Shown here one piece after another: positions 897 through 48,942 of a stretch of 64,000 nucleotides of DNA. The translations under genes were made by a program, and so were the position numbers. Each line of letters opens with the position of its first letter. The stretch's first letter is position 1. The notes under the pieces are model-generated. The model saw only the letters and a list, made by a program, of their open reading frames with translations. It was not told the origin of the DNA and did no database searches. Source of the DNA: Candidatus Ratteibacteria bacterium (GTDB lineage: Bacteria; Ratteibacteria; UBA8468; B48-G9; DTJG01); the NCBI GenBank assembly GCA_049971295.1, contig JBMFLH010000002.1, positions 15,240 to 79,239 of the forward strand, written 5' to 3'.

Positions 897-1411
897 TGCC
901 AGTATTGAGAATTATTTATGAAAGACAGGGTGTTGCCAGGTTTATATCCGTCAATTACATTGGTAAAATTTTTGAAAGAGCAATGAGAAGATTACAGATA
1001 AATTTGGAATTTTCTTATGGATATAGCCGCAGGGTTAGGATGACTCTTGGTCCGCCTGTTGCGGTTGGTATTTCTGGTGTTAACGAGGTGATTGACATAC
1101 ATGTGAAAGATAAAAATATTTCTCCTGATTTTATCAAAAACAGTTTGAATGAGATTCTACCTGAAGGTTTGAAGATTACAGGATGTCGTTATCTCATGGA
1201 TGGCGAAAAGTCACCACCTGAAATCAAGAAAGCACGATATGTGATTAGAGGATTTGCTGATATTACGGGCAATATCCCGGAGTCATGGAATGTCATCGGT
1301 AAAAATTCAGACATGATTGAAATTGAGATCTGGATTGAAAAATTTAGACACAGGGACCTTTTTGATATTTTTGGCACATCCTGCCTGATAGAAAGAAAAT
1401 TGATTTTTTGA
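896..1411 (+). CDS. DUF2344 / TIGR03936-like radical-SAM-linked protein
   Basis: Motif pattern ARFISVNYIGKIFERAMRRLQINLEFSYGYSRRVRMTLGPPVAVG matches the conserved core of the DUF2344 family. The start overlaps the upstream stop (TGATG). Confidence 0.45.
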   Translation: MPVLRIIYERQGVARFISVNYIGKIFERAMRRLQINLEFSYGYSRRVRMTLGPPVAVGISGVNEVIDIHVKDKNISPDFIKNSLNEILPEGLKITGCRYLMDGEKSPPEIKKARYVIRGFADITGNIPESWNVIGKNSDMIEIEIWIEKFRHRDLFDIFGTSCLIERKLIF

Positions 1412-1428
1412 GTAAATTCAGTATAATT
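1400..1428 (+). promoter_or_regulatory. Sigma70-like promoter TTGATT-17nt-TATAAT upstream of the sugar-acid operon
   Basis: TTGATT at 1400-1405, a 17-nt spacer and TATAAT at 1423-1428. An AGGAG RBS and the ATG at 1470 follow about 40 nt downstream. Confidence 0.4.
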
Positions 1429-1469
1429 TACTTAGATGTTTCCTGTTGCACGCTAATCCAGGAGCAATA

Positions 1470-2249
1470 ATGTCAATGAGATTTTCAATTTCAAAGAAGC
1501 ATGGCTTTGAAAAAAAGATCGTTTCACCGGGAAATTCTGACCTTAAATTCCTTTCGTTTAGTTATTTGTTTTCTGTATCTTCGCTCGAGTTTGAACAAAA
1601 CACTGAAGACGAAGAATGGTTATGGCTTATTATATCAGGAAAAATTAATGTTATGATAGGAGAGAATTGTTTCTGTATGGAAAGAAAGGAAGTGTTTAAT
1701 GACAAACCAGTTTCTTTATATATCCCTGCAGGAACGAAATATGCCATGAAATCTGAGGGGTTTTCAGAAGCAGTGGCAGTCTCTGCACCATCTGAAAGAA
1801 CATTTTCTCCTGTTTTTATTTCATCTGACGATATAAAAGTTCAAAGGGCAGGAAAATTGAATTATCAACGTTCAATTTTTAATATCGTGCCCCAGAATTT
1901 CCCTGCTTCCAAAATTATCGCAGGCGAGACAATTCATGATACTGGGCACTGGTCCTGTTTTCCGCCGCATAAGCATGATGAAGATAAAATGCCAGAAGAA
2001 AGCAAACATGAGGAACTATATTTCTTCAAATGTGAACCTGAAAAAACAGGCTTTGGAATGATGCGTGTTTACGACGACACACAGGATATTGCATTTCCAA
2101 TTCTTTCCAACGATGTCATTACTATTCCAAAAGGTTATCACCCAGTAAGTGTGATACCCGGTCATAAACTTTATTATTTCTGGGCGCTTGCTGGTGAAAA
2201 ACGGGCATTTCAAAGACACACACATCCGGATTACCTTGAGTATGAATAA
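1470..2249 (+). CDS. iolB: KduI/IolB-family cupin sugar isomerase, closest to 5-deoxy-glucuronate isomerase IolB
   Basis: Motifs SCFPPHKHDEDKMPEESKHEELYFF and IPKGYHPV resemble the IolB YPPHKHD...PEES...VP.GYHPV signature recalled from memory. Start assigned to the ATG at 1470, 7 nt after an AGGAG RBS; the track ORF begins at an upstream TTG at 1446. Confidence 0.6.
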   Translation: MSMRFSISKKHGFEKKIVSPGNSDLKFLSFSYLFSVSSLEFEQNTEDEEWLWLIISGKINVMIGENCFCMERKEVFNDKPVSLYIPAGTKYAMKSEGFSEAVAVSAPSERTFSPVFISSDDIKVQRAGKLNYQRSIFNIVPQNFPASKIIAGETIHDTGHWSCFPPHKHDEDKMPEESKHEELYFFKCEPEKTGFGMMRVYDDTQDIAFPILSNDVITIPKGYHPVSVIPGHKLYYFWALAGEKRAFQRHTHPDYLEYE

Positions 2250-2258
2250 AGGGGGCAT

Positions 2259-3086
2259 ATGAACAGGGAAAATATAGATTTATTTAATCTTAACGGAATG
2301 AGTGCTGTTGTAACTGGAGGAGCAGGAGTACTTGGATTCAGCATATGTACAGGACTGGCAGGTGCAGGAGCGTCTGTTGCCATCGCAGACATGAGAAATT
2401 TTAAAGAAGCAGCAGAACAATTAAAGAAAAAAGATCTTGATGCAGAAGGATTTTACATTGATGTACTGAAAAAAGACAAAATTATTGAGTGTGCGGAAGA
2501 GATTATGCAGAAATATAAAAAAATCGATATTCTTGTTAACTGTGCTGGAGGAAACTTAAAGGAAGCAACAACCTCTCCTGAACTAAGTTTTTTTGATCTT
2601 CCTCTTGAAGGTCTTGAAAAGGTTGTAGCGCTGAATTTATTCGGGGGAGCGATACTTCCATCTCAAGTATTTGGAAGGGAAATGGTAAAAAATCCTGATG
2701 GGGGGTCCATTATCAATATATCCTCCATGAATGCTTTCAGACCGCTGACGAGAATTCCTGGTTATTCTGCAGCAAAAGCAGCAGTAAGTAATTTTACCCA
2801 ATGGCTCGCAGTGCATTTTGCTATGGAATACAACAAACTGTTAAGGGTTAATGCAATAGCGCCTGGTTTTTTTCTTACTCAACAAAATCGGTATCTTCTT
2901 ACAGATGAAAACAATAATCTCACACCAAGGGGCCAGTCAATTATTAACCACACTCCAATGGGAAGATTTGGTGAACCTGATGATTTAATTGGTACCTGCA
3001 TATGGCTTGCATCAAGAGCATCAAGGTTTGTTACAGGAGTCGTAATTCCAGTTGATGGTGGCTTTAACGCATATTCGGGTGTTTGA
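2259..3086 (+). CDS. SDR-family NAD(P)-dependent oxidoreductase (sugar or sugar-acid dehydrogenase-like)
   Basis: Gly-rich TGGAGVLG cofactor motif and a catalytic S...YSAAK SDR region. RBS AAGGGGG lies before the ATG. Confidence 0.75.
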   Translation: MNRENIDLFNLNGMSAVVTGGAGVLGFSICTGLAGAGASVAIADMRNFKEAAEQLKKKDLDAEGFYIDVLKKDKIIECAEEIMQKYKKIDILVNCAGGNLKEATTSPELSFFDLPLEGLEKVVALNLFGGAILPSQVFGREMVKNPDGGSIINISSMNAFRPLTRIPGYSAAKAAVSNFTQWLAVHFAMEYNKLLRVNAIAPGFFLTQQNRYLLTDENNNLTPRGQSIINHTPMGRFGEPDDLIGTCIWLASRASRFVTGVVIPVDGGFNAYSGV

Positions 3087-3109
3087 TTTTTAACAGAAAG
3101 GAGCAGAAA

Positions 3110-4597
3110 ATGAAAAAAGCAAATATTGCGATTATTGGAATGGAAGTAATGGGAAGAAGCCTTGCACTTAATATGGAAAGCAAAGGTTATGTTGTGGCGG
3201 TTTATAACAGAACAGCAGAAAAAACAAAGGCGTTTGTAGAAGGTCCTGCCAGAGGTAAGAATATTATCCCTGCATATGAATTGAAAGACCTGGTTGATTC
3301 TCTTGAAAGTCCAAAAAAGATTATGCTAATGGTAAAAGAAGGCCAGCCAGTGGATAACTTTATAGAAACGCTTCTCCCTTACCTGAAGCCAGGAGATCTT
3401 ATTATTGATGGGGGTAATTCATTCTTTAAGGACACAATCAGAAGAAACAAAATGCTGTCAGAAAAAGGGATTCTTTTTATTGGAACAGGCGTTTCAGGAG
3501 GAGAAGAGGGTGCACTGAAAGGACCTGCTATTATGCCTGGAGGACAGAAGGAAGCATATGACCTTGTAGAGAAAATATTCAGGGATATTGCGGCAAAGGC
3601 ATATGACGGTGAGCCGTGTGTTGATTACATAGGCCCTGATGGAGCAGGGCACTTTGTGAAAACCATTCATAATGGAATTGAGTACGGTGATATGCAGTTG
3701 ATTGGCGAGGTCGTTTGGTTTTTTAAAAACATTGGAATGAAAGCAGATGAAATTGCTGACATTATGGCAAAATGGAATGATAAGGACGATAGTTTGAGGT
3801 CATACCTGATAGAAATCACTGCTGACAGTATGAAACAGAAACATCAGGGGTCTGACGAATTTCTTGTTGACAGGGTTGCTGACATTACGAGAATGAAAGG
3901 GACTGGTACATGGACTGTTCATAGCGCACTGGAACTATTGGTGCCGATTCCAACGATTGCTGCAGCAGTATTTTCAAGGGAAATGTCTCAGGATAAAGAT
4001 TTGCGACTTGCGATGGCAAAAAAATTAATAATACCATTCGGCAAATTCAATGGTGACAGAAAAGAAATTATTGAAACAGCTCACGATGCACTGTACATAG
4101 CCAAGATTTCGTCGTATGCTCAGGGAATTGCTCTGCTTCAAGCTGCTTCTAAAGAATACAATTTTCAATTGAATATTGGCAGAATTGCAAAGATATGGCG
4201 TGCAGGATGCATCATCAGGGCTCAATTTCTTGATGAGATTACCAAAGCGTATGAATCTGACCCTGACCTTCCCAATCTTATTGCTGCGCCAAAATTTGCC
4301 AGTTTCGTCGAAGCCAACGCATGGAAACTTGCAAAATTCATTGATGTGGCGCACCAGTGTGGAGTGCCTGTTCTGGCTATGAGCGGTTCGCTTGATTACA
4401 TTATGCAGCTTACATCACCTGTGATGCCATCTGCTCAGGTTTCTGCTCTTCAAAGAGATTACTTCGGTGCCCATGGTTATTTCAAAATTGGTGGGCCGAA
4501 TGACCCTGAACTTGTTGTAAATGAACAGGGAAAGGTGCGTGAATTCCATACCGAATGGTTGCTCCCAGGAAGACCAGAAAGAGAAATTACAAAGTAA
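3110..4597 (+). CDS. gnd: 6-phosphogluconate dehydrogenase, decarboxylating
   Basis: N-terminal IAIIGMEVMGRSLALN Rossmann motif, GTGVSGGEEGA, and the full-length C-terminal 6PGD domain. Start placed at the ATG at 3110, after an AAAGGAG RBS. Confidence 0.85.
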   Translation: MKKANIAIIGMEVMGRSLALNMESKGYVVAVYNRTAEKTKAFVEGPARGKNIIPAYELKDLVDSLESPKKIMLMVKEGQPVDNFIETLLPYLKPGDLIIDGGNSFFKDTIRRNKMLSEKGILFIGTGVSGGEEGALKGPAIMPGGQKEAYDLVEKIFRDIAAKAYDGEPCVDYIGPDGAGHFVKTIHNGIEYGDMQLIGEVVWFFKNIGMKADEIADIMAKWNDKDDSLRSYLIEITADSMKQKHQGSDEFLVDRVADITRMKGTGTWTVHSALELLVPIPTIAAAVFSREMSQDKDLRLAMAKKLIIPFGKFNGDRKEIIETAHDALYIAKISSYAQGIALLQAASKEYNFQLNIGRIAKIWRAGCIIRAQFLDEITKAYESDPDLPNLIAAPKFASFVEANAWKLAKFIDVAHQCGVPVLAMSGSLDYIMQLTSPVMPSAQVSALQRDYFGAHGYFKIGGPNDPELVVNEQGKVREFHTEWLLPGRPEREITK

Positions 4598-4650
4598 ATA
4601 AGGAACAAGGTCTTAATTTTGGAAGCAATTTACCGGTTTTATCATTGCAT

Positions 4651-5691
4651 ATGTTTGAAAAACTTGTAAAACATAAATTGCAGGAAGATCCGCAAGAATA
4701 TTTAAAAACGTTTAAAAGAACAAGAGATTTTCTTGTGGCAATTGATACGGATGGATGTATTGCTGATAACATGAATGCTAAACAGATGTTAATATTCCAT
4801 CCGTTATACATGGAATTTTATCAACTGTGGGAAATTGAGTCCTACTTCAGAGAGGTTGCAGAATTTTACAATCTTTTTTCTGTTCACAGGGGTAGCAACA
4901 GGTTTATTGCTGTCAGATTAACATTGATTGCTTTAAGCAACCGGCAGGATGTGCGGACTGAAGTAAACAAACTGAATGTGACTCTGCCAGAAGCTGAATC
5001 TGTTGACCAATATATTGAATTCTGCAGAAAGAGACACTGTGGCATGGGAAATGTTTCTCTGGACCAATTTCTCTCAACACGACCTTTTGATTTCGAACTT
5101 TATAAACTATCAGGATGGAGTCAGGCGGTTAATAAGGCACTTGGCTGTATTGTTGATAAAATTCAACCTTTTGAAAATGTGAGGGAGTGTCTTGAAATAA
5201 TTTACAATCACGCAGACATTGCTGTGATTTCTCAAACTCCTCATGAAGATTTATTTAATTACTGGAATACTCACGGTCTTTTGAAATATGTAAAAATGAT
5301 CTGTGGCCAGGAGATGGGGAGCAAAGCGCATCATATAGAGATGTTAAAAAAGATCGGTAAATACTCTGATGATGCAGTGCTAATGATTGGCGATGCTCCT
5401 GGAGATTTTGAGGCGATTAAGAAAAATCACGGACTTTTTTATCCTGTTACGCCTGGAAGTGAAAATGAATCATGGAAAAAATTTCCAGAGGCGTTCGAAC
5501 TGTTTTTGATGGGTAAGTATCAGGTGGAATTGGAGAAACAATTGATTAATGAATTTTCAAGAAAATTACCTGATACGCCACCGTGGCAAAAACAGGATTA
5601 TGACCATATCGCTTCTTACAGAAAAAATCAGGAAATCAGGAAATCTCTTTATAAACAATTTAATCCTGATGGGAGGTTACTTATTTTATGA
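4651..5691 (+). CDS. HAD-superfamily hydrolase (putative sugar-phosphate phosphatase)
   Basis: HAD motif I-like AIDTDGCI and motif IV MIGDAPGD. The start could instead be the ATG at 4555, which overlaps gnd by 43 nt. Confidence 0.45.
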   Translation: MFEKLVKHKLQEDPQEYLKTFKRTRDFLVAIDTDGCIADNMNAKQMLIFHPLYMEFYQLWEIESYFREVAEFYNLFSVHRGSNRFIAVRLTLIALSNRQDVRTEVNKLNVTLPEAESVDQYIEFCRKRHCGMGNVSLDQFLSTRPFDFELYKLSGWSQAVNKALGCIVDKIQPFENVRECLEIIYNHADIAVISQTPHEDLFNYWNTHGLLKYVKMICGQEMGSKAHHIEMLKKIGKYSDDAVLMIGDAPGDFEAIKKNHGLFYPVTPGSENESWKKFPEAFELFLMGKYQVELEKQLINEFSRKLPDTPPWQKQDYDHIASYRKNQEIRKSLYKQFNPDGRLLIL

Positions 5692-6974
5692 AAATAGGCA
5701 CAGGCAATAGGAATGAGGTTCTGTCTGAACAAAAATTTATCTCTATTTTGCAGGATATCGTGATTTCTCTTGGACTGGAGAAAAAGCAAAAGGTTCTGGC
5801 CATTATACCTGATGGTACACGTTCAGGTCCAACTGGAACTGTTTTCAGAACCATTGTTGACACTCTTTACCAGCGGGTCAAAAAGCTGGATTTTATGATC
5901 GCTCTTGGAACTCATCCAGTAATGGTGCGGGAAAACATTGAAAAATTACTTGGTATTAACTGTGAGAAGTTCCAGGAAAAATATCCGCATACGCAGATAT
6001 TTCAACATTGCTGGGATGATGAGAAAACAATAGTGGAAATTGGCACCATTACAGCCAGCGAAATTTTGAAAATTTCTCATGGCCTTTTGAACGAAGATAT
6101 TCCTGTGACAATTAACAGAGCTATACTTGATTATGACCACATAATCCTTGCAGGACCTGTTTTTCCTCACGAGGTTGTTGGATTTTCTGGCGGATATAAG
6201 TATCTTTTTCCTGGAGTTTCGGGCCCTCATTTTCTTCACAAGTTTCACTGGCTTGGCGCTTTGATTACAAATCCTAAAATCAATGGCGTGAAAAATACTC
6301 CTGTAAGAGAAGCAATAAACAGAGCAGTTTCTTTTATAAGAAAGCCAATCACACAGATATGTTACGTCGTTAAGGAAAAAAAGGTCTATGGAATATTTGC
6401 AGGAGACAACGAGGCATGGTCTGCTGCCGCAGATCTATCATCACAGTTGAATATTGAATATGTTGACAGGAATTATAAAGAGGTGCTTTCAATAGCGCCA
6501 GTGATGTATGATGACATATGGACTGCTGGCAAATGTATGTATAAACTTGAACCGATTGTTTCTGATGGAGGAAACTTAATTATCTACGCTCCAAATATTA
6601 CAGAGGTTTCTTATACCCACGGAAAGTATATCAGGCAGGTCGGATATCATACGCGTGATTATTTTCTCAAACAATGGGAAAAATTTAAGAATTTTCCGGG
6701 TGGAATTCTCGCTCATTCCACTCATGTCAAGGGTATCGGTACTTTTATCAATGGAATTGAAACTCCAAGAATCAATGTTTATCTTGCAACTGGCATCAGT
6801 AAGGAGGTGTGCCAGCAGATTAACCTTGGCTACATCAATCCCATTGAAATCAATATTGATGATTTCCGAAAAAAACAGGATACTCTTGTTGTGGAAAATG
6901 CAGGAGAGGTGCTATTCAGGTTGAAAAGTGGCCAGATTCCTGACATCGACAAACTTTACGAGAAACAAAAATGA
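5688..6974 (+). CDS. LarA-family (DUF2088) nickel-pincer-nucleotide-dependent racemase/epimerase homolog
   Basis: IIPDGTRSGP, ALGTHPVM and VFPHEVVGFSGGYKYLFPGVSGPHFLHKFH align with the LarA PD.TRP / GSH / PHFFAGFSGGRKS active-site motifs, and the catalytic Lys and His are retained. ATGA overlap with the upstream gene and a GGGAGG RBS. Confidence 0.65.
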   Translation: MKIGTGNRNEVLSEQKFISILQDIVISLGLEKKQKVLAIIPDGTRSGPTGTVFRTIVDTLYQRVKKLDFMIALGTHPVMVRENIEKLLGINCEKFQEKYPHTQIFQHCWDDEKTIVEIGTITASEILKISHGLLNEDIPVTINRAILDYDHIILAGPVFPHEVVGFSGGYKYLFPGVSGPHFLHKFHWLGALITNPKINGVKNTPVREAINRAVSFIRKPITQICYVVKEKKVYGIFAGDNEAWSAAADLSSQLNIEYVDRNYKEVLSIAPVMYDDIWTAGKCMYKLEPIVSDGGNLIIYAPNITEVSYTHGKYIRQVGYHTRDYFLKQWEKFKNFPGGILAHSTHVKGIGTFINGIETPRINVYLATGISKEVCQQINLGYINPIEINIDDFRKKQDTLVVENAGEVLFRLKSGQIPDIDKLYEKQK

Positions 6975-8341
6975 GTTATTTATTCAAAAAACAATATCCG
7001 GATTTTAGATTTTTTGAAAGTTCATTAAGAAAATATGGTGACGATTATTATTTTGTTGCTGAAAAAAATGGAAAAATGTATCTGGTTGTGGGAAACAAAT
7101 CCTTTCAGTTTATTGAATATGAGAAATCATCTGAAATATTAAGGAAAACATTTTCATTTCTCACGCCGGTCTGTGCGGGCATGAAGAATTCTTTTGGTTT
7201 TGGAGACAGGACGGGTTTTGCAACTCCAGGGCACATCCGTGCGGTAAAGGGAAGTGAGTTTTTCCCGATTTTTGCACAGCAATCAGCAAGAGAACTTGAA
7301 AGAACAGGAAGAACATTCAAACAGGTTCTTGACGATGTGATATTTTGGTGTTTTGCCTTCGGCTGGACAGATGGTTTTGGAGCAGATGCTGACCATGCGA
7401 AAAGTTTTGATGTTTTACAACAGGCGATTTCTGCTGGTTACACATTTTTCACCATTGACCCTTCTGATAAAATCAAAAACCCATCAGATACATCATCATG
7501 TGAAAGGCATGGTATTGACAGATACATCAAGGAATACTCTGGTAAGAATTTTGCATGTAGTGGCTTTTCTTTTGTTTTCACTGAAGAAATGGTTTCTGAC
7601 CTCGCCATTACATATGGGAGAGCTATTGATTTTATCGAGGAGTGTTATTCATTTATTTCTGACAAAAAAAAGAATTTTGATTTTGAAATTTCGGTCGATG
7701 AAACAAAAGTTCCAACAACTCCTTATGCTCATGCGTTTATTGTTATGGAACTCCAAAAGAGAAATGTTGAATTTAATGGTTTGGCTTTGCGTTTTCCTGG
7801 AAGGTTTGAAAAAGGGATCGACTACATTGGAAATATGAATGAACTTGCCAGAGAACTTGAAATTCATAACGAGATACGGAATCATCTTGGACCGTATAAG
7901 ATTTCACTTCACTCTGGAAGCGACAAATTCAGTATTTATGGTACATTCAAAAAAATACTTGGAAGCATGTTTCATGTGAAAACATCAGGGACATCATGGA
8001 TTCAGTCAATGAAAACCGTTGCAGCAGTTGACAGAGAATTTTTTATAAAGTGTTTGGAAGTGGCGCTGAAGGATTTTGAAAAAAATTCAAAGTCATATGA
8101 AATTTCGGCAGACATTTCAAAATTGAATTTAGAAAAAATAAGAAATGAAAATCTTGATGAAATATTTTCCGATCATCATATCAGGCAGTTAATTCATATC
8201 AGTTATGGAAGTATTATTGGAAGCGCGCCTGAAAGTCAAAAAATGAAACAACACTACTACACCCTGATTGAAAAAAACTATGAACTTTATTTTCGTTTTG
8301 TTGAAGAACACCTGAAAAAACATATTCAACTGCTTATATGA
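6971..8341 (+). CDS. Putative sugar epimerase resembling the tagaturonate/fructuronate epimerase (UxaE) family
   Basis: Motifs SFGFGDRTGFATPGH and LHSGSDKFS are reminiscent of the UxaE family, recalled rather than searched. 456 aa, translationally coupled (ATGA) to the LarA homolog. Confidence 0.35.
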   Translation: MSYLFKKQYPDFRFFESSLRKYGDDYYFVAEKNGKMYLVVGNKSFQFIEYEKSSEILRKTFSFLTPVCAGMKNSFGFGDRTGFATPGHIRAVKGSEFFPIFAQQSARELERTGRTFKQVLDDVIFWCFAFGWTDGFGADADHAKSFDVLQQAISAGYTFFTIDPSDKIKNPSDTSSCERHGIDRYIKEYSGKNFACSGFSFVFTEEMVSDLAITYGRAIDFIEECYSFISDKKKNFDFEISVDETKVPTTPYAHAFIVMELQKRNVEFNGLALRFPGRFEKGIDYIGNMNELARELEIHNEIRNHLGPYKISLHSGSDKFSIYGTFKKILGSMFHVKTSGTSWIQSMKTVAAVDREFFIKCLEVALKDFEKNSKSYEISADISKLNLEKIRNENLDEIFSDHHIRQLIHISYGSIIGSAPESQKMKQHYYTLIEKNYELYFRFVEEHLKKHIQLLI

Positions 8342-8351
8342 AAGGAGAAAT

Positions 8352-10274
8352 ATGAACAAAAAGAGATTTCCTTATAGCCAGTTGCCTGAAAGTGAAATTA
8401 AAAGACTTCAGGAATTTAGTAATCTCTGTCGAAGGGATGTGCTTACAATGACAACCCTTGCAAAGTCAGGACATCCAGGTGGTTCAATGTCTGCTATGGA
8501 AATTTACAATGTTGTTTTTCATTATGCAGCAGTCAACCCTGACGCAGTAGATGACCCTGAGAGAGATAAAATCATTATCAGTTTTGGTCATACTTCTCCT
8601 GGTGTATATGCTGTGTTAGGAAGGATTGGTTTTTTTGATCTTGATACAGCCATTGCCTCTTTCAGACAAACAGGTAGTATTTTTGAAGGGCACATTGTAA
8701 GAAAAGTGCCGGGAATTGAATGGGGTACAGGTAATCTGGGACAGGGCCTATCTGCTGGTTGTGGTTTTGCTCTGATTGATAAAATAAAAAATCGTGATGC
8801 TTTTACATTTGTGTTGATGAGTGATGGTGAACAGACAAAGGGCCAGGTGGGCGAGGCTCGTCGTTTTGCAATCAAATACAAACTTAATAATCTCAGAGTC
8901 ATAATTGATTATAACAGAATCCAGATCAGCGGTTGCATTTTTGACATTATGCCCAACAACATTAAAGAAAACTATCTTGCTGATGGATGGGAAGTAATGG
9001 AGACCGATGGTCATGATATAGCAGGTCTTTATGACACGGTGAGGAGAAGTTTAGAAATTGATAAACCTGTTTGTATCATTGCCAGCACAGTGATTGGAAA
9101 AGGTGTTTCTTTTATGGAAGGTAAATGTGCTTATCATGGCAAGACCCTTGGAGAGGAAGAATATGATAAGGCAGTTAAAGAATTGGGTTTAGAAGGAGAA
9201 CTGGAAAAATATAAAGAAATGAGAAAGAAAAAAAAGTATTCATTTCCTGAAAGAAAATTTGATATACCAATTTCGATCAACATGGGTGCCCCGCGTACAT
9301 ATGAATCAGGTACAAAAATCGATAACAGGACCGCATTTGGAAATGCGCTTCTGGACCTTGGTATCGTGAACGAAGATAACAAGGAAAATCCTATTATTGT
9401 CTTTGATTGCGACCTTGCGAGTTCCGTAAAAACAGATTTATTCGCAAAGCGATTTCCTGAAAGATTTTTTCAATGCGGTGTTCAGGAGCATCACGCAGCG
9501 ACTGTATCCGGAGCTGCTTCTGTTGAGGGCGCTATCAGTTTTTTTGCAGATTTTGGAGTTTTCGGAGTGGATGAAACCTACAATCAGCACAGATTGAATG
9601 ACCAGAATTATACAAACTTAAAGATCGTGTGTACACATCTTGGGCTTGACGTGGGAGAAGATGGAAAAACTCATCAGTGTATTGATTATGTGGGACTATT
9701 CAGAAATGTTTTTGGAATAAAACTTATTATACCTGCAGATGCCAATCAGACCGATAGAGTGATAAGGTATGTTGCGGTAAAGTCCGGGAATTATTTTGTT
9801 GGGATGGGCCGGTCCCATACGCCGGTTATAACAACCCCTGACGGAAAACCATTTTTTGGAGAAAACTACATATTTGAATACGGCAAAGCAGATGTATTAA
9901 GAGATGGGAAAGATGGTTTCATTTATACAATGGGCGCTCTGGTACCAAGAGCAGTTACAATTTCTGACCGGCTCAGGCAGGATGGAATCAGTATTGGTGT
10001 TATAAATTGTTCATGTCCTGTTGAAATTGATAAGGACGCATTGGAACTCGGCATCAAAACAGGTTTGATAATATCATACGAAGACCATGTAGTTGATTCA
10101 GGACTTGGTATGACAATTGCGGCATATATCGCTGAAAAACAAATTGGCGTGAAATTCCACAGGTTTGGTATCAGAAAATATGGTAGTTCAGGAACACCTG
10201 ATGAACTTTATGCAGAACATGGACTTGACCCTGAAACAATGATATCGTTTATCAAAAACATTATTAAAAGATAA
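8352..10274 (+). CDS. tkt: Transketolase, full-length single polypeptide
   Basis: Motifs SGHPGGSMS, ISFGHTSPGVYAVLG, GNLGQGLSAGCGFA and MSDGEQTKGQ correspond to TktA ThDP-binding motifs. RBS AAAGGAG. Confidence 0.8.
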   Translation: MNKKRFPYSQLPESEIKRLQEFSNLCRRDVLTMTTLAKSGHPGGSMSAMEIYNVVFHYAAVNPDAVDDPERDKIIISFGHTSPGVYAVLGRIGFFDLDTAIASFRQTGSIFEGHIVRKVPGIEWGTGNLGQGLSAGCGFALIDKIKNRDAFTFVLMSDGEQTKGQVGEARRFAIKYKLNNLRVIIDYNRIQISGCIFDIMPNNIKENYLADGWEVMETDGHDIAGLYDTVRRSLEIDKPVCIIASTVIGKGVSFMEGKCAYHGKTLGEEEYDKAVKELGLEGELEKYKEMRKKKKYSFPERKFDIPISINMGAPRTYESGTKIDNRTAFGNALLDLGIVNEDNKENPIIVFDCDLASSVKTDLFAKRFPERFFQCGVQEHHAATVSGAASVEGAISFFADFGVFGVDETYNQHRLNDQNYTNLKIVCTHLGLDVGEDGKTHQCIDYVGLFRNVFGIKLIIPADANQTDRVIRYVAVKSGNYFVGMGRSHTPVITTPDGKPFFGENYIFEYGKADVLRDGKDGFIYTMGALVPRAVTISDRLRQDGISIGVINCSCPVEIDKDALELGIKTGLIISYEDHVVDSGLGMTIAAYIAEKQIGVKFHRFGIRKYGSSGTPDELYAEHGLDPETMISFIKNIIKR

Positions 10275-10286
10275 CAGGGGGTTAAA

Positions 10287-10490
10287 ATGAAATGTATTAA
10301 TAAAGACACCAATCTAAAAAATTGCAGTTGCACATATGTTTCATGTGGCAAACGTGGTATGTGTTGTGAATGCGTTGCCTATCACAGAGACAATGGTGAA
10401 ATTCCGGGTTGTTTTTTTCCGCCTGAAGCAGAAAGAGGTTATGATAGGTCAATAAAAAATTTTATCAATGCATGGAATAGAAAAGTGTAA
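10287..10490 (+). CDS. Small (67 aa) cysteine-rich protein of unknown function; 9 Cys, likely metal-binding
   Basis: Strong AGGGGG RBS 8 nt before the ATG, placed directly after tkt in the same operon. Cys pattern CSCTYVSCGKRGMCCECVAYH...GC. Confidence 0.5.
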   Translation: MKCINKDTNLKNCSCTYVSCGKRGMCCECVAYHRDNGEIPGCFFPPEAERGYDRSIKNFINAWNRKV

Positions 10491-10497
10491 ATCATTG

Positions 10498-11424
10498 CTA
10501 ATACCATAGCCAGAGGTATCTCCATCGTTTGCTATAGAGTGTTGCGACATCTGGTTTTCTTATAATTATGAGTGTTTCGATATTTCTCCTTGCTGATTCT
10601 GTGTAATTGAACGAGCCAGTTAACACAATTTTCTCATCAATAATCGTGAACTTATCATGAATATTTTCCACGAAACAATCTTTTTTTATATGGAAAAAGT
10701 GAAATCTTTTCAGAAAATCGTATTCGTTTGATGCTGGATTTTGGGAACCTTCAAAAATTCCATAGACCTGGGTACCTTTCAGTCCCACTTTGCAAATTTC
10801 TTCTGCAATTGAATCAGAGGTAAATGAAAACATTGCGAATTTTACATTTTTTTCAGCCCTGCCTATTTCATTTCTTATAATTTGAGCACAATCAGTCGCA
10901 GGGGAAAAATATATTTCAACAGTTTGATCTTTATAAGTTTTGCAATCCATTGAACCATTCCACAAAAGCAAAAAATTTTTCGTAAAAAACTTTCCTATAT
11001 TTTCATTATCAAAAAATACAATATTATTTGAGTCCCACATCAGGGACGATTCACTAAAATTGGCAGAACCAGCAAATACATATCTTTCATCAATCACGAT
11101 GAATTTTGCGTGCAAATGGCAGGATTTTTTATCCCATCGTTTTATTTTTGTTTGTAATGATTTGAAAGAAGCATTTGCCGGTGGAAATTGCAACAGTATT
11201 TTTACGTCAATCCCTCTTTTAGAAAGTTTTTCAAGGATTTCAAGACCTTCGCTCCATCCGAATGTATAAGTCGAGACATAAACTAATTTTTTTGCCTGCA
11301 ATAATCTATTTATGATTAATCTATCAACTTTTTGGGAAGGAGAAAAATATACTTTCACATCTGAAAAACAGGCGATGGTATGCAATAACAACAGGAGAAG
11401 GGAAAATTGACTGAATTTTTTCAT
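10498..11424 (-). CDS. Secreted phospholipase D-family protein with two HKD motifs (PLD/Nuc-like)
   Basis: N-terminal signal peptide MKKFSQFSLLLLLLHTIACFS. HKD motifs HAKFIVIDERYVFAGSANFS and HDKFTIIDEKIVLTGSFNYT. Confidence 0.7.
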   Translation of the reverse strand: MKKFSQFSLLLLLLHTIACFSDVKVYFSPSQKVDRLIINRLLQAKKLVYVSTYTFGWSEGLEILEKLSKRGIDVKILLQFPPANASFKSLQTKIKRWDKKSCHLHAKFIVIDERYVFAGSANFSESSLMWDSNNIVFFDNENIGKFFTKNFLLLWNGSMDCKTYKDQTVEIYFSPATDCAQIIRNEIGRAEKNVKFAMFSFTSDSIAEEICKVGLKGTQVYGIFEGSQNPASNEYDFLKRFHFFHIKKDCFVENIHDKFTIIDEKIVLTGSFNYTESARRNIETLIIIRKPDVATLYSKRWRYLWLWY

Positions 11425-11501: not shown

Positions 11502-12578
11502 ATGAAACTTATCAACTGGGAGGAAATTTTGAAAGCCGCTATATTCCATGGTCCAGAAAAAATTACTGTAGAAAATTGGGAATCGCCAGTGTGCGCCGAG
11601 GATGAGATTTTGATGAAAGTAAATTATTGCGCAATATGCGGTACTGATGTTAGAACCTTTTTCCACGGACACAAGAAGGTGATTCCTCCTGCTATTATCG
11701 GGCATGAAATCACAGGAGAGGTTGTTGAAATCGGGAAAGATGTAAAAACAAATTTGAAAATTGGTGATAGAATCACGCCAGTTACTTCCATTGGTTGCGG
11801 TGCGTGCCGATTATGTCAGAAAGGACTTTATAATTTGTGTCCTGATACAAAGGCGCTTGGTTATTACTGGGCTGGAGGATTTGCTGAATATATGATTATT
11901 CCAGCGCCTGCTGTAAAACAGAGTGCCTGGGTACTTTTGCCTGAAAATGTTTCTCTGCTTGAAGGAGCACTTGTTGAACCTCTTTCCTGTGTCATCAATG
12001 CTCAAAATTATCTGAACATACAGGATGGAGATACAGTTGTGATTTATGGTGGAGGCCCCATTGGATTCATGCATGCCGTTATGGCTCAGGCGTCAGGAGC
12101 AGAAACTCTTATTATGATTGACCCTGCCTTTGATCGTCTTAAAAAATTTGCAACGAACTTTAACAATATGATTTTGATAGATCCAAATACTGAAAATACT
12201 GTTTCAAAAATCAAAGATATTACCAGAAATTTTGGTGCGGATGTGATTATTACAGCCTGTCCTGCAAAGAAGGCGCAGATTGAGGCGTTTTCTATCGCGG
12301 CGCCGCATAGTAGAATCAGCTTTTTTGGAGGGCTTCCAAAAGATGATTCAATGATTACAATTGACAGCAATCTGATTCATTATTTGGAAATTTCAGTTTT
12401 TGGTGCATTTGCATCAAATAGAAAGGATTATCAGAAGGCAGTGGATTTAATATCTTTGAGGAAAATAGACCCATCAAAATTTATTACTGAAGTTATTTCT
12501 CTTGAAGAGATTGAAAAAGGGATTCGTCTTGTGAAAAGTGGCAGTGTATTAAAGGTTGTTGTGAAGGTACAGGAGTAA
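11502..12578 (+). CDS. Zinc-dependent alcohol/polyol dehydrogenase (MDR family, sorbitol/threonine dehydrogenase-like)
   Basis: CAICGTDV and GHEITGEVVEIG zinc-binding motifs, a structural-zinc Cys cluster CGACRLCQKGLYNLC, and a GGGPIG NAD motif. Confidence 0.8.
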   Translation: MKLINWEEILKAAIFHGPEKITVENWESPVCAEDEILMKVNYCAICGTDVRTFFHGHKKVIPPAIIGHEITGEVVEIGKDVKTNLKIGDRITPVTSIGCGACRLCQKGLYNLCPDTKALGYYWAGGFAEYMIIPAPAVKQSAWVLLPENVSLLEGALVEPLSCVINAQNYLNIQDGDTVVIYGGGPIGFMHAVMAQASGAETLIMIDPAFDRLKKFATNFNNMILIDPNTENTVSKIKDITRNFGADVIITACPAKKAQIEAFSIAAPHSRISFFGGLPKDDSMITIDSNLIHYLEISVFGAFASNRKDYQKAVDLISLRKIDPSKFITEVISLEEIEKGIRLVKSGSVLKVVVKVQE

Positions 12579-12581
12579 ATT

Positions 12582-13373
12582 ATGAAATCAGAGGTTTTGA
12601 AAGACAGAATTACGATTATCACAGGAGCTGGAAGGGGTCTTGGAGAGGCATTGAGTTATGGATTTGCAGAAGAGGGCGCAATCATATGCCCATGGGACAT
12701 TGACGAAAACAATCTTGACAGGGTTGCAGAGGAATTGAAAAAACTTAACAGGTATGGAAAAAAGGCAAAACTTGATATTACTGACGAAGGTCAAGTGAGA
12801 AAGGAAATCGAAGCGATTGAATCAGAATTCGGGAAAATTGATATTTTAATCGCAAATGCAGGCATTCTGAGATCTTATGAAATTACAGATTTTCCGGAAG
12901 ACGACTGGAGAAAAATCATTGAGGTAAATCTAACCGGATATTTTATCTGCGCAAAATATGTCGCAAGGGTGATGAAGAAACAACGCAGCGGAGTGATTAT
13001 TCAAATTAACTCAAAGTCAGGTAAAAAAGGAAGTTACTGGAATTGCGCGTATGCAGCAAGCAAATTTGGTGGTATTGGTCTTACACAGAGTATCGCTCTT
13101 GACCTTGCGCCGTTTAATATCAGAGTTAATGCGATATGTCCGGGAAATATTCTTGAAAGCCCTTTGTGGCAGACAAGTTTGTTCCAGCAGTATGCAAAAA
13201 AGTGGGGCATTTCAATAGAGGAAGTTAAGAAGAAATATATTGATCAGGTACCTCTCGGTAGACCGTGCACATACAGAGATGTTATTAATGTAGCTGTTTT
13301 TCTTGCGAGTGATTATGCCAGTTACATGACAGGTCAGGCAATTAATGTGACTGGTGGCCAGGAAATGAGATGA
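12582..13373 (+). CDS. SDR-family dehydrogenase, sorbitol-6-phosphate 2-dehydrogenase (SrlD)-like
   Basis: TGAGRGLG motif. The C-terminal half (IQINSKSGKKGS...YAASKFGGIGLTQSIALDLAP...YIDQVPLGR...INVTGGQ) closely resembles E. coli SrlD as recalled from memory. Confidence 0.6.
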   Translation: MKSEVLKDRITIITGAGRGLGEALSYGFAEEGAIICPWDIDENNLDRVAEELKKLNRYGKKAKLDITDEGQVRKEIEAIESEFGKIDILIANAGILRSYEITDFPEDDWRKIIEVNLTGYFICAKYVARVMKKQRSGVIIQINSKSGKKGSYWNCAYAASKFGGIGLTQSIALDLAPFNIRVNAICPGNILESPLWQTSLFQQYAKKWGISIEEVKKKYIDQVPLGRPCTYRDVINVAVFLASDYASYMTGQAINVTGGQEMR

Positions 13374-17216: not shown

Positions 17217-18169
17217 TACTGAAAATGAAACGGTTGATAAGCATTTTCATTAAAGTATTCGTGAGTGGTTTTTTTATATTCCTTATTACCAGAAAAATTG
17301 ATATTTCACAGATGCTTGAAATTTTGCGAAATGTGAATATCCCATTTTTCATAATCATCATTCTGATTAATTATGCGGTGACTTTTTTTATGGCTCTTAG
17401 ATGGTACTTTATTCTGGATGAGTTCAGAAAAAAAATGCCGTTTGTTAAAGTGTGGCAATTATCTCTTATCGGAATGTATTTTAATATTATTTTACCAACT
17501 GGAGCAGGTGGAGATGCCGTCAAAATTTTTTATATTACCAGAAATCAGGAAGAAAAATTGAAACTTGGTACATCTGTCATTTTTGACCGATTTATTGGCT
17601 CGTCGTCTATAATTTTTATGGCGATACTCAGTTTGTTATATTATCAAGGGCACCTGCCTCAAAAATTGAAAATTACCCTTGTATTTCTTTTTATTCTTGC
17701 GTTGTTTATATGGCTTTTGATCGTATGGGATAAACTTGCAATTTTGACGGGCAAGATTTTTCCTCGCAGAATCAGAGAAAAATTAAAGGCATTTTATAAT
17801 CATCTCAGGGATTATGGGATTAATCGCAGGGTTTTTACCAGCGCTTTTCTGGCAAGCATGGCTGTCCAGGTACTTTCTATCTATGTTCAGTATTTATGTG
17901 TAATGCTCATTTCTCACGTGGATAAATCACCTGTTCCTTTTCCTTTGTTCTTTATATTCATTCCTATTATATGGCTTTCAGCGATGGTTCCTTCACTCGG
18001 CGGCCTTGGAATAAGGGAATATGGGTATCTCTTTTTCTTTAAAGTTTATATCGGGCAGGAAGCAGCAATTGCAATGGCGCTGATTAATCTGTTTCTGATC
18101 TTTTCTCAGGCATTTCTCGGGGGATTGATTTTTTTGTTTCTTCGTCCAGGTCGCCAAGATCACAAATAA
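17213..18169 (+). CDS. Integral membrane protein of the flippase-like / lysylphosphatidylglycerol-synthase TM-domain family (UPF0104)
   Basis: Multi-pass hydrophobic profile with PTGAGGDAVKIFYI and LGGLGIREYGYLFFF motifs. Confidence 0.5.
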   Translation: MILKMKRLISIFIKVFVSGFFIFLITRKIDISQMLEILRNVNIPFFIIIILINYAVTFFMALRWYFILDEFRKKMPFVKVWQLSLIGMYFNIILPTGAGGDAVKIFYITRNQEEKLKLGTSVIFDRFIGSSSIIFMAILSLLYYQGHLPQKLKITLVFLFILALFIWLLIVWDKLAILTGKIFPRRIREKLKAFYNHLRDYGINRRVFTSAFLASMAVQVLSIYVQYLCVMLISHVDKSPVPFPLFFIFIPIIWLSAMVPSLGGLGIREYGYLFFFKVYIGQEAAIAMALINLFLIFSQAFLGGLIFLFLRPGRQDHK

Positions 18170-19102
18170 ATGTTTTTCCCAGAATTTTGTTTACTTCATC
18201 AGGACATGGAAAATCTGTAAACGATCTTGCTGCTTTTGCTGTTGCTGATGCAACCGCAAATCTTAAGGATTCTTTGAAATTACCTGTTTTTGAAAAATAC
18301 AAAACGAATCCAGCAAGAAGTACATCACCGCATCCCACAGAGCCAGGGTTATTGACGATAGGTCCTTTTGCGTAGAAAAAACCATCTTTTGAAAATCCAA
18401 TAGCTCCTTTGTTTCCCATTGTGACGATAATAAATGAAATCCCTGATTTTAGCAACTTTTCCCCTATTTGACATAAATGTTCAAAATTTAGAATTTGTTT
18501 TGATATCAGTCGTTCAAGTTCCCAGATATTGGGCTTTATTAAATCAGGTTTTTCGCCGACGCCATAACGAAGAAATTCTCCATCTGTGTCAAGCCCAATA
18601 AACGTATTTTTTCCTCTTCGACGGATTTCTCTTATTATTCTAGCATATAAATTTTCAGGCATTCCGGGAGGTAAACTACCAGAAATAAGAATCCATTTTG
18701 CACTGTTAAAATCGATGCTGAATATTAATTCAAGTATTTTTTCCAAGGACTGTTCTTTTACGATGGGACCAGGTTCATTGAATCGTAAAACTGTACCGTT
18801 TTCAAAAAAAAATTGTAGTTTTCTCTGGTTTCTCCGTCTATATCAATTATAAAGTCAGTAGAAATGCGTGAGTTCTTTAGTAGATTCTTGAAGCGGATTC
18901 CATTAAAACCCCCTGCAATGCCAATTGATTGTACACTTACATTAAACTGGCCAAGAAATTTTGCAATATTAATCGCCTTACCACCGGCAGACACAACCTT
19001 TTTACTGATTCTATTAATATCGTCTGATTTGAATTCCTTAACATAACAATTAACGTCAAGACAAGGATTCAAACCAATTGTAATAACATGATTGTGTTGC
19101 AT
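18084..19102 (-). pseudogene. PfkB-family sugar kinase (1-phosphofructokinase/tagatose-6-P kinase-like), reading frame interrupted at a homopolymer
   Basis: The N-terminal 114-aa ORF (18758..19102: ITIGLNPCLDVN, SAGGKAINIA) and the C-terminal ORF (18084..18746: GNKGAIGF, VGCGDVLLAGF GAGD-type motif) lie in different frames. The frames switch at the A9 run at 18804-18812. Splicing the two gives a continuous PfkB sequence ...GETRENYNFF(F)ENGTVLRFNEPGPIVKEQSLEKILEL... Confidence 0.6.
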
Positions 19103-22566: not shown

Positions 22567-23475
22567 TTATTCGTAAAGAAAACACATCACAAGATGGTCA
22601 TTTTCTTTCTCTTTTAATTCAGGAGATTGATGAAAACATTTTTCCATCCTGAATATACATCTATGAAGGAAGGGACATCCATAGTCGTACTTCTGTTCTT
22701 CCTCAACAATTTTTGCAGATTCTGGATTCCACAGTAATTGCGTGTATGGATGGAGTGGATTATTTACTATCTGTTCTACCGAACCCTGTTCGACGATGTG
22801 GCCCCTGTACATCACCACAATCCTATCACAAAATTCTGCTATAACCTTAAGATTATGTGAAATTAAAACATAGGTGATGCCAAAACTTTTTTTTAATTCC
22901 TCAAGTAATGTCAGAATATGAATTTCAGTCATTGCATCAAGACTCCCTGTTGGTTCATCGGCAATGATACATTCAGGATTTCCTACCAGCGCCCTTGCAA
23001 TTGCTAACCTTTGTCTCTCTCCCCCACTCATCTGATGAGGATATTTATCTTTGTATTCAGGTGATAGTCCAACATGCGAAAGTATGTCATCAACTTTTCC
23101 AGGAATTTTTGTTTCAGTCAGCATGGCTTCTTTTATCACCCTTTCAACAGTTGACCGTGGATTCAAAGATTTGTACGGGTTCTGAAAAATTATTCTTACA
23201 CGATTTCTGAAAAAGCGAAGTTTTCTATCAGGCAATTTTGTGATTTCATTGCCTCTATAATAAATAAGGCCTGAGTCAGGTTTGACCAGCAGTGTCAGTG
23301 TTTTTGCCAGTGTTGTTTTCCCTGATCCTGATTCTCCAACGATACCAATATTTACATTGTGATTTATAATCAGAGAGATGTGATTGATAGCCGTAAGTTT
23401 TCTCTTGTTTATACCAAGAGAGTCCTTGATTATAAAATTTTTACTGATTTTTTCACACCTGAGAATTTCTTCCAT
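22567..23475 (-). CDS. oppF: Oligopeptide/dipeptide ABC transporter ATP-binding protein
   Basis: Walker [18 protein letters not shown], and the C-terminal oligopeptide_F extension (HPYT). Confidence 0.8.
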   Translation of the reverse strand: MEEILRCEKISKNFIIKDSLGINKRKLTAINHISLIINHNVNIGIVGESGSGKTTLAKTLTLLVKPDSGLIYYRGNEITKLPDRKLRFFRNRVRIIFQNPYKSLNPRSTVERVIKEAMLTETKIPGKVDDILSHVGLSPEYKDKYPHQMSGGERQRLAIARALVGNPECIIADEPTGSLDAMTEIHILTLLEELKKSFGITYVLISHNLKVIAEFCDRIVVMYRGHIVEQGSVEQIVNNPLHPYTQLLWNPESAKIVEEEQKYDYGCPFLHRCIFRMEKCFHQSPELKEKENDHLVMCFLYE

Positions 23476-24376: not shown

Positions 24377-24378
24377 CT

Positions 24379-44735: not shown

Positions 44736-44748
44736 ACAGAGGTGTGTC

Positions 44749-46140: not shown

Positions 46141-46148
46141 CTTCAGTC

Positions 46149-48653: not shown

Positions 48654-48663
48654 TTTAGTTGTT

Positions 48664-48942
48664 TTAGAGGACGATTTTTTTCTCCCATTCCAGTATGAAT
48701 TTTTTAAATTCCTTGCCAAGTTTATATCCACCAGAGTCTCCATTTGAACATATAATTCTGTGGCAGGGAATCGCAATGAGATCATGGTTTTGGCCTAATA
48801 TTTTTCCGACAGTCCTCGGGCTGATTCTCCCGCATTTCATGGCAATATATTTATATGTTGATGTGCCGCCAAATTTGACACGATTGACCTGAGCAAATAC
48901 CATTTTTTTGAGATGGGCTTTGTTAATATTTGCCATATTCAA
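48664..48942 (-). CDS. ogt: Methylated-DNA-[protein]-cysteine S-methyltransferase, short single-domain form
   Basis: Active-site IPCHRII motif and an HTH DNA-binding region. 92 aa. Confidence 0.75.

Follow-up and report, generated by a model that had tools for sequence, protein, structure and literature searches.

Galacturonate and glucuronate are major plant and microbial carbon sources. To our knowledge, a redox-neutral, CO2-releasing route that leads them to 6-phosphogluconate dehydrogenase (Gnd) has been described only for Thermotoga and, at the biochemical level, for one Lactobacillus; the galacturonate route of T. maritima was reportedly worked out by Rodionova et al. in 2012. There, gnd-uxaR-uxaE-uxaD-gntE-gntK together with UxaC take galacturonate through tagaturonate, fructuronate and mannonate to gluconate, and the route ends with gluconate passing through 6-phosphogluconate to ribulose-5-phosphate (PMC3750489). 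We analysed a stretch of 64,000 nucleotides from Candidatus Ratteibacteria (contig JBMFLH010000002.1; hereafter the window, whose own positions are used throughout) and found, at 1470–10490 on the + strand, eight consecutive, tightly packed, co-directional open reading frames (ORFs), each with a clear family match to a hidden Markov model (HMM). Homology and genomic context suggest that this cluster probably encodes a variant form of the Thermotoga-type shunt by which hexuronates enter the pentose-phosphate pathway (PPP), with galacturonate or glucuronate as the substrate.

Several described systems come close to parts of the cluster. GntE2 of T. maritima (PDB 4NAR) was characterised experimentally as a nickel-pincer-dependent D-mannonate/D-gluconate 2-epimerase (PMC7583248), and further GntEs have been described (PMC11770544). 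In Lactobacillus suebicus, UxaC, UxaE and fructuronate reductase lead by way of mannonate to 6-phosphogluconate and Gnd; the order can be mannonate kinase first and then a 6-phosphomannonate 2-epimerase, and because this kinase-first order and its product were seen in extracts, 6-phosphomannonate is a real intermediate in such routes (PMC6978723). That system differs from the window in using phosphoketolase rather than transketolase, has no genes assigned to the kinase and the 2-epimerase, and has no reported HAD partner (PMC6978723). Our literature searches for a fructuronate or mannonate kinase, or for a 6-phosphomannonate enzyme, returned that paper only. LarA homolog group 18 (LarAH18, NF052594), itself uncharacterised, has a published context of SDR, 6-phosphogluconate dehydrogenase, ribokinase-family kinase, glucuronate isomerase and KduI, with no HAD in the table (PMC7583248, Table S1). 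The Ashwell pathway (UxaC-UxaB-UxaA or UxuB-UxuA-KdgK-KdgA) has the same entry, from uronate through keto-uronate to hexonate, whereas in the window carbon would exit by Gnd decarboxylation and not by aldol cleavage; family models recognised no altronate or mannonate dehydratase (UxaA/UxuA), 2-keto-3-deoxygluconate kinase (KdgK) or 2-keto-3-deoxy-6-phosphogluconate aldolase (KdgA) among the eight cluster proteins.

Core enzymes and the proposed route

The eight genes of the cluster, with their best family models, are:

1470–2249 (+): KduI/IolB-family cupin, 259 amino acids, first gene (Pfam PF04962, 212 bits)
2259–3086 (+): SDR of the D-mannonate oxidoreductase subfamily (NF006132, 344 bits against a cutoff of 281)
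3110–4597 (+): Gnd, decarboxylating 6-phosphogluconate dehydrogenase (NF006765, 595 against 413; TIGR00873, 573 against 427)
4651–5691 (+): HAD-IA family protein, 346 amino acids (weak HAD_2 match)
5688–6974 (+): LarA homolog of the GntE type (Lar_N PF09861, 82.5 bits)
6971–8341 (+): UxaE, tagaturonate/fructuronate epimerase (Pfam PF16257, 467 bits)
8352–10274 (+): transketolase (NF004556, 955 against a cutoff of 575)
10287–10490 (+): DUF6485, Cys-rich protein of 67 amino acids, last gene (PF20095, 34.6 bits)

A sequence-only reading of this DNA had named every one of these protein families correctly, as the HMM matches to each protein confirmed, and had concluded that the set matches no canonical pathway. 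That conclusion did not hold: UxaE, SDR, LarA and Gnd together are the published Thermotoga core (PMC3750489). The window and Thermotoga have in common a UxaE, a putative SDR fructuronate reductase, a LarA protein with the GntE signature and Gnd, all in one operon and following the same logic, so that the window covers four of the six enzymatic steps in the published route. The Thermotoga operon itself was recovered in a LarA-centred metagenome scan (locus L093) as gnd, a GntR-type regulator, uxaE, SDR, gntE and an FGGY-type gntK. Relative to it, the window is without UxaC, GntK and UxaR, has an IolB-like cupin instead of UxaC, and adds the HAD-IA protein, the DUF6485 protein and a transketolase, the last being an extension of the route into the non-oxidative PPP. 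The cluster is thus a published pathway core with new variant details, an IolB-like protein for UxaC and a conserved HAD where Thermotoga has GntK, and its novelty is narrower than had been claimed. The same reading had proposed that a hexuronate is funnelled into the PPP by epimerisation, oxidative decarboxylation and ketol transfer, in agreement with the Thermotoga route. It had also considered that missing steps of an ordinary, complete pathway might be encoded just outside the cluster. The pathway core is indeed a known one, but no gluconate kinase (GntK) was found in the cluster or the 64-kb window, and tblastn with Atribacterota UxaC found no UxaC in the window. Because these two genes are absent, the gap noticed in that reading is real; it recurs in relatives.

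The window UxaE matched the tagaturonate/fructuronate epimerase PDB 9LHW at 1e-108. The SDR has secondary matches to KduD and gluconate 5-dehydrogenase and is probably a D-fructuronate reductase/D-mannonate oxidoreductase (UxuB/UxaD function), an assignment at the family level only. For the LarA homolog, the best PDB match is GntE2 itself (4NAR, E = 8e-63, full length). We took the list of residues for catalysis and for binding of the nickel-pincer nucleotide from PMC7583248 and PMC11770544. The window protein keeps the equivalents of GntE2 D38, R41, H154, E155, K164 and H180, the catalytic Lys after G286, and the Gly-Thr-His motif bearing the other catalytic His. The GntE specificity signature is present as well (Glu-Val after the catalytic His and Ala-His in helix 14), and in an alignment of 4NAR with seven cluster LarAs the D, R, GTH, PHE, K, H and GK columns are invariant. 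By these residues, the protein is probably a nickel-pincer-dependent D-mannonate/D-gluconate 2-epimerase, with the 6-phosphates of the two acids as a possible alternative substrate pair. It belongs to another subgroup than either reference, sharing 33% identity with GntE2 and 25% with a protein of the LarAH18 type; its best curated model is NF052594, 'putative hexonate epimerase', at 186 against a cutoff of 500.

In the proposed route, D-galacturonate (or D-glucuronate) would first be isomerised to D-tagaturonate (or D-fructuronate) by the cupin in place of UxaC, a step to which we return below. UxaE, judged by the activity of its homologs, would convert tagaturonate to fructuronate, and the SDR, by its subfamily membership, would reduce fructuronate to D-mannonate. 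The LarA/GntE-type enzyme would then invert C2 of mannonate to give D-gluconate, the activity known for T. maritima GntE2. A hexonate would be phosphorylated at C6 by an enzyme not encoded in the window, and Gnd would turn 6-phosphogluconate into ribulose-5-phosphate by oxidative decarboxylation. After Rpe and Rpi steps encoded elsewhere, the transketolase may join this ribulose-5-phosphate to glycolysis, channelling pentose phosphates onwards.

Some findings weigh against this assignment. Identities to the Thermotoga enzymes are only 33–43%: 43% for UxaE, 41% for Gnd, 34% for the SDR (with UxaD) and the 33% of LarA. LarA falls under the cutoff of every curated NCBIfam model, and we recognised no larB, larC or larE among the ORF translations of the 64-kb window, by inspection and with no HMM scan of every ORF. 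The cluster is without transporter, regulator, UxaC and kinase and sits among housekeeping genes, so its substrate is deduced only from homologs and from the contexts of relatives. We consider the overall function of the cluster reasonably secure by homology and context.

Gene order in relatives and the isomerase step

We scanned for the HAD protein with one genome per species, which yielded 80 loci (given as L-numbers), including one of the cultured Pseudothermotoga sp. U03pept (L077), and counted its neighbours in the 31 well-covered loci with at least 6 kb upstream and at least 5 kb downstream. LarA was found in all 31, the SDR in 30, Gnd in 27, UxaE in 25, a PFK-family gene in 20, transketolase in 11, an IolB-like gene in nine and UxaC in four. 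The loci come from Omnitrophota, Atribacterota, Thermotogota, Ratteibacteria, Latescibacterota, Aerophobetes, Firestonebacteria, Actinomycetota and others. The complete order from IolB to transketolase recurs at 50–95% protein identity in independent metagenome-assembled genomes (MAGs; L006–L008, L020, L028, L041, L065 and L069). Its IolB-SDR-Gnd-HAD part is on L073 and L083, where the contigs end, and DUF6485 is kept behind the transketolase gene in L006, L007, L020, L041 and L065. An identical cluster lies on a 15.7-kb contig of GCA_049699515.1. The nearest relatives (84–95% identity) are unclassified MAGs, and syntenic ones farther off are labelled Omnitrophota or TA06. This recurring gene order is far from chance.

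In other lineages the same genes occur with TRAP, ABC or MFS transporters, LacI/DeoR regulators and pectinases. The module of SDR, LarA-type epimerase and Gnd, usually with UxaE, is spread over many uncultured anaerobic phyla, and long metagenomic contigs show it in pectin loci as well. For engineering, the route is attractive as a redox-neutral use of pectin-rich waste. The Thermotoga-type inositol pathway produces tagaturonate, and inositol genes of that type (IolG/M/N/O-like) flank the cluster in L004, L072 and L079.

The setting in the window lineage brings up another role, a constitutive internal route that would serve as an alternative oxidative PPP branch and not for exogenous uronates. 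By it, anaerobes with small genomes and no glucose-6-phosphate dehydrogenase would draw ribulose-5-phosphate and reducing power from an endogenous sugar acid. The lack of a transporter and regulator there, the position after a gap-pgk-tpi-secG housekeeping block and the transketolase at the end would suit it, as would the ribosomal-protein or other housekeeping genes that adjoin the cluster in other candidate phyla. However, no enzyme of the cluster makes a uronate from a hexose phosphate, and relatives of the cluster lie in unmistakable uptake or pectin loci with the transporters and regulators named above. We therefore regard an internal route as quite improbable and continue with the uronate shunt.

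In relatives, small PF05635 '23S rRNA-intervening sequence protein' genes lie inside the operon in L043 (6632–7033), L052 and L146 (11362–11787), between Gnd and LarA or between LarA and Gnd and in at least two different collections. In the Omnitrophota/Ratteibacteria clusters L003, L018, L027 and L031, genes for a FAD-linked oxidase (GlcD-like) and a URO-D-like protein come after LarA.

The first step of the shunt depends on the cupin. IolB brings the aldehyde end of 5-deoxy-glucuronate to a ketone, and UxaC carries out the same chemistry on glucuronate and galacturonate. The window cupin scored 189.7 against the IolB equivalog TIGR04378, below the cutoff of 205, as did relatives in other clusters (189.1); its score against the KduI model was 28.7, where 250 is required, and its best PDB match is 2QJV, an uncharacterised IolB-like protein. 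The gene opens its cluster, the place held by UxaC as first gene of the Atribacterota clusters, and an IolB-like gene and UxaC were never together in one locus among 172 loci. The genes iolC, iolD, iolE, iolG and iolJ are absent from the window and from syntenic loci. We propose the cupin as a UxaC analog because it scores below the IolB cutoff, is accompanied by no other iol genes, holds the first position and does not co-occur with UxaC; that it is a uronate aldose-ketose isomerase substituting for UxaC we regard as an even call. Two points count against it: L086 has an IolB-like gene in the same syntenic slot without the remaining cluster, which weakens the functional link, and we know of no IolB-family activity on glucuronate or galacturonate.

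The IolB-like gene could instead point to an inositol pathway (5-deoxy-glucuronate) or, taken with the SDR, to a route of the KduI/KduD type for unsaturated uronates. The equivalog score just below its cutoff and the secondary SDR matches to KduD and gluconate 5-dehydrogenase would fit, as would a Zn-dependent dehydrogenase at 11502–12578 with a weak best match to IolM (185 against 450). Neither the cluster nor the window, however, encodes IolC, IolD, IolE, IolG, IolJ, KdgK or KdgA. The KduI score is as low as given above, the KduD model reaches 163 against 339, and genuine KduI and KduD are separate genes beside the same core in L089 and L091. By our own chemical reasoning, moreover, 2-deoxy-5-keto-gluconate has no 2-OH for LarA to epimerise. 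An inositol or unsaturated-uronate pathway is thus highly improbable.

The HAD protein and the phosphorylation step

The HAD homologs, of 347 amino acids, are uniform: identity is 50–60% across at least eight phyla, and 55–60% across MAGs that carry the labels Atribacterota, Omnitrophota, Ratteibacteria, Aerophobetes, Firestonebacteria, Thermotogota and others. When 1.8 billion representatives were searched with a profile, this group fell into one 50% cluster. HAD motifs I–IV are invariant (D32-x-D34-G-C36, S194/T196, K225 and G247-D248...D252), and so are the cap residues K44, R67, R80 and R84. A helical C1 cap is inserted after motif I, which places the protein in HAD subfamily IA. In an AlphaFold2 model (mean predicted local distance difference test score 88.7), the HAD-IA core carries an unusually large helical cap and extra C-terminal helices. 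Small-molecule phosphatases, phosphoglycolate phosphatases, beta-phosphoglucomutase and CbbY come closest in fold (10–18% identity), and the HAD-fold kinase PtkA is also among the neighbours. No PDB sequence relative was found at E ≤ 1, no NCBIfam model matched, and no characterised HAD subfamily (PGP, beta-PGM, CbbY, sugar phosphatases) fits.

A sister family of about 296 amino acids, with at least 7,900 members, is 36–43% identical to the 347-residue family and has all the invariant residues in common with it. It adjoins the same pathway genes in five of the five loci examined, some of which are pectin loci:

L089 and L091: Pectinesterase-UxaE-SDR-LarA-Gnd-PfkB-HAD-UxaC-KduD-KduI-MFS-GH28-GH88-LacI
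L090: UxaC-UxaE-SDR-Gnd-LarA-PfkB-HAD-Eda
L092: TRAP-UxaC-UxaE-SDR-Gnd-LarA-HAD, with no kinase
L088: a looser Gnd...LarA...UxaE-HAD

L089 and L091 are of the LarAH18 type. The L089 LarA is a full member of the NCBIfam LarAH18 putative hexonate epimerases (625 against 500), and in L091 the LarA slot holds ORFs without a recorded Lar_N match. The module thus has a constant, previously unnoticed HAD partner in two subfamilies, each above 50% identity across phyla; our literature searches found no paper mentioning a HAD partner of this pathway. We infer that the HAD is a catalytically intact phosphoryl-transfer enzyme dedicated to the pathway, as its motifs suggest.

What this enzyme does bears on the missing kinase. 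In a LarA-centred sample of 80 metagenome loci, the candidate hexonate kinase beside LarA or Gnd varies between loci:

FGGY GntK: L093, L137 and L165
P-loop GntK: L109
KdgK/IolC-like PfkB kinase: L120, L121, L152, L158, L160 and L172
PFK-A-family protein: L097, L144 and L156

The HAD is absent from all of these kinase-bearing loci. The pattern suggests that a single function, a 6-kinase for hexonates (or keto-hexonates), has been displaced repeatedly by non-orthologous genes, and because related clusters fill the slot with unrelated kinases, the kinase of the window genome is probably encoded elsewhere. Where the HAD is present, 53 of 80 loci also have a PFK-like gene, which always precedes it (PFK-HAD). 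A PfkB kinase stands before it (PfkB-HAD) in L089–L091, KdgK-like and at 6847–7932 in L089, and it has no kinase beside it in the window type, L092, L136 (MFS next to LacI-SDR-Gnd-LarA-HAD) and L146. It was never alongside an FGGY or P-loop GntK in the loci sampled, although the LarA-centred sample has just 14 loci that extend 4 kb or more to either side, too few for a statistical conclusion on this exclusivity.

In the HAD clusters, the PFK-family proteins score above the cutoff of the subfamily model for pyrophosphate (PPi)-dependent PFK (350 against 273). Compared with the PPi-PFK 3HNO, they (L002 8576–9898 and those of 52 further loci) have two conserved insertions, one of about 10 residues after the TIDND motif and one of about 15 residues containing G-I-A-R, and an invariant Ser-Asp-Pro where 3HNO has Ser-Thr-Lys. 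We take the Lys that is replaced by Pro to align with the 6-phosphate-binding Arg162 of E. coli PfkA, a numbering that serves as a lead only. The 'PPi-phosphofructokinase' label of these proteins is probably wrong, and both the PFK-like and the KdgK-like kinases probably act on sugar acids. The labels '5-deoxy-glucuronate isomerase', 'HAD hydrolase' and 'PPi-phosphofructokinase' are all probably misleading in these loci, which expose three enzyme targets: the HAD protein, the hexonate kinases of the PFK-like and KdgK-like kinds, and the IolB-like isomerase.

Mannonate and gluconate differ at C2 only, distant from the phosphorylated C6. A HAD phosphatase would accompany less selective kinases and shield Gnd, the sole exit, by clearing mis-phosphorylated or inhibitory sugar-acid phosphates (6-phospho-D-mannonate, 4-phosphoerythronate) that would otherwise block it. 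The model is given by PGP/Pho13, HAD-type phosphatases that clear 4-phosphoerythronate, an inhibitor of 6-phosphogluconate dehydrogenase arising from the transketolase product erythrose-4-phosphate (PMC6449344, PMC6904873). In sequence, only the HAD motifs are shared with the window protein, and PGP/Pho13 are stand-alone housekeeping genes and not operon partners. In the window, the HAD gene comes directly after gnd, tkt lies downstream in the operon and gap upstream in the syntenic block. By analogy, the HAD may be a specific aldonate-phosphate phosphatase, a tentative assignment that falls a little short of an even call. Speaking against it, a proofreading phosphatase conserved so strictly would be unusual; the window synteny recurs in L087 as IolB-SDR-Gnd-LarA-UxaE with no HAD, making the HAD dispensable; and operons that run from a transporter to Gnd and HAD without a kinase fit a phosphorylating HAD at least as well.

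Such a HAD would itself do the missing phosphorylation, as an aspartyl-phosphate phosphotransferase that replaces GntK non-orthologously and phosphorylates gluconate or mannonate at C6, the donor being for example PPi, a sugar phosphate or acetyl-phosphate, with the remaining pathway unchanged. One missing reaction would then meet one orphan conserved gene. The kinase-free operons listed above have every other step and the HAD, the Thermotoga GntK sits at the operon position of the Pseudothermotoga PFK-HAD pair, the HAD keeps apart from FGGY and P-loop GntKs, and its fold is near beta-phosphoglucomutase, which transfers phosphate between sugars, and near PtkA. Against this, HAD orthologs with 50–60% identity and the same invariant residues directly follow the PFK-like kinase in the 53 loci and a PfkB kinase in L089–L091. 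The same PFK-like and PfkB proteins are the sole phospho-enzyme in the HAD-less loci tabulated above and so seem to do the phosphorylation. L087 manages without the HAD, and a kinase absent from an operon need not be absent from the genome. We know, moreover, of no HAD-family small-molecule kinase for sugar acids. A phosphotransferase HAD is on balance unlikely. The same degree of doubt applies to the combined reading in which the HAD (347- and about 296-residue families) is a new sugar-acid phosphotransferase replacing ATP-dependent gluconate kinase, making 6-phosphogluconate or 6-phosphomannonate from the free hexonate at the expense of PPi, a sugar phosphate or an acyl phosphate in a widespread anaerobic uronate pathway, while the cupin is a new, UxaC-independent isomerase of uronates.

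Since orthologous HADs adjoin kinases that elsewhere work alone, the phosphatase role is the more parsimonious of the two. By our own chemical reasoning, a phosphatase acting in the main line is unlikely because Gnd needs the phosphate, and a mutase is unlikely because every candidate kinase already phosphorylates the same terminal carbon. What probability the phosphatase and phosphotransferase readings leave over goes to some function not yet thought of.

Further candidates for the HAD were set aside. A HAD drawing phosphate from the fructose 1,6-bisphosphate of an adjacent PPi-PFK is disfavoured by clusters with a KdgK-like PfkB beside the HAD instead, by the PFK-like or PfkB protein being the sole phospho-enzyme in HAD-less clusters and by the differences of the PFK from 3HNO. 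A CbbY-like partner of RuBisCO and PRK, with the PFK as ribulose-5-phosphate kinase, found no RuBisCO-like ORF in 83 loci. A sedoheptulose-bisphosphatase or generic PPP phosphatase fails to explain the linkage to LarA (31 of 31) and the SDR (30 of 31). The N-terminal extension of the L146 HAD, considered as a fused kinase, has no Pfam domain and is probably an ORF over-extension in GC-rich DNA, and the fusion partners of distant HAD relatives (Cof-type phosphatase, GH35-like, CobA-like) were uninformative.

We also looked for the kinase in the window. The FGGY kinase at 46149–47531, taken as a candidate gluconokinase, is XylB-like (xylulokinase model 236 bits; gluconokinase model 143 against 649), and a PPi-PFK-type query had no match in the window. 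A pfkB/1-phosphofructokinase-like gene at 18084–19102 (-) is frameshifted: it is split into an N-terminal ORF at 18758–19102 (114 amino acids) and a C-terminal ORF at 18084–18746 in another frame, covering model positions 125–305, and is either a frameshifted pseudogene or an assembly error.

The FGGY gene closes a second sugar cluster at 42381–47531 (+), all of whose members are far below curated cutoffs. It starts with a 784-residue fusion of a glucosamine-6-phosphate-deaminase-like domain and an LmbE/PIG-L-like C-terminal part, followed by an L-arabinose/sulfoquinovose-isomerase-like protein and then the xylulokinase-like kinase; an MFS gene (47505–48785) is convergent to it. Among the relatives of the main cluster, galactokinase-like GHMP kinases of two families, below galactokinase cutoffs, lie directly downstream in L038, L047, L061, L062 and L076; they may also serve in the kinase slot, or may act as uronate 1-kinases.

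Operon structure and neighbouring genes

The eight-gene cluster is a genuine operon. The view that it forms one operon-like sugar-acid cluster was upheld, with all eight ORFs found on the + strand. ATGA overlaps are present at two junctions, HAD/LarA and LarA/UxaE; the remaining junctions are gaps of 9, 23, 10 and 12 nt, plus 53 nt between Gnd and HAD. Shine-Dalgarno motifs are clear upstream of six of the eight genes, with none obvious for HAD and UxaE. The HAD start had been placed at an ATG inside gnd (4555). An alignment showed that the ATG at 4651 is invariant in four relatives and that the spacer before it varies in length and sequence, so the gene starts at 4651.

The proposed promoter, given a 17-nt spacer and placed at 1400–1428, had to be corrected:

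1400–1427 (+): promoter-like TTGATT-16 nt-TATAAT, 10 of 12 consensus matches, overlapping the 3' end of the upstream DUF2344 gene

Promoter-like sites are not enriched in the window (40 found against 36.9 ± 5.3 in shuffled sequence), and this putative promoter is a lead, not evidence. An Rfam scan of the whole window gave one tRNA only and no riboswitch or leader for the cluster. The upstream block gap-pgk-tpi-secG-SBP_bac_5-DUF2344 is co-directional with the cluster, with small gaps in relatives, and read-through into the cluster is therefore possible. At the other end, the transcription unit stops at 10490 because the next gene is convergent.

That gene (10498–11424, -) encodes a secreted-looking protein with two HKD motifs (PLD/NucT/DrmC-like) and is kept at the same position in L006 and four other loci. 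Directly after it, at 11502–13373 (+), come two dehydrogenases, the Zn-dependent one already mentioned (weak best match IolM/Tdh) and an SDR above the cutoff of the sorbitol-6-phosphate dehydrogenase equivalog (352 against 307). At the matching position in L006, L007 and L065 there is an ORF with weak SDR similarity (26–27% identity), and a link between these dehydrogenases and the uronate cluster is possible.

Proteins of the SBP_bac_5 family bind oligopeptides, nickel or, in Thermotogae, oligosaccharides. The SBP_bac_5 solute-binding gene upstream of the cluster (54–896, +) is cut by the window start, has no adjoining permease and is kept in all window-type loci; Opp/Dpp-type permease and ATPase genes without a binding protein lie 20 kb off at 22567–26399 (-). 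As a speculation, the SBP_bac_5 protein could supply the substrate of the pathway, or nickel for LarA.

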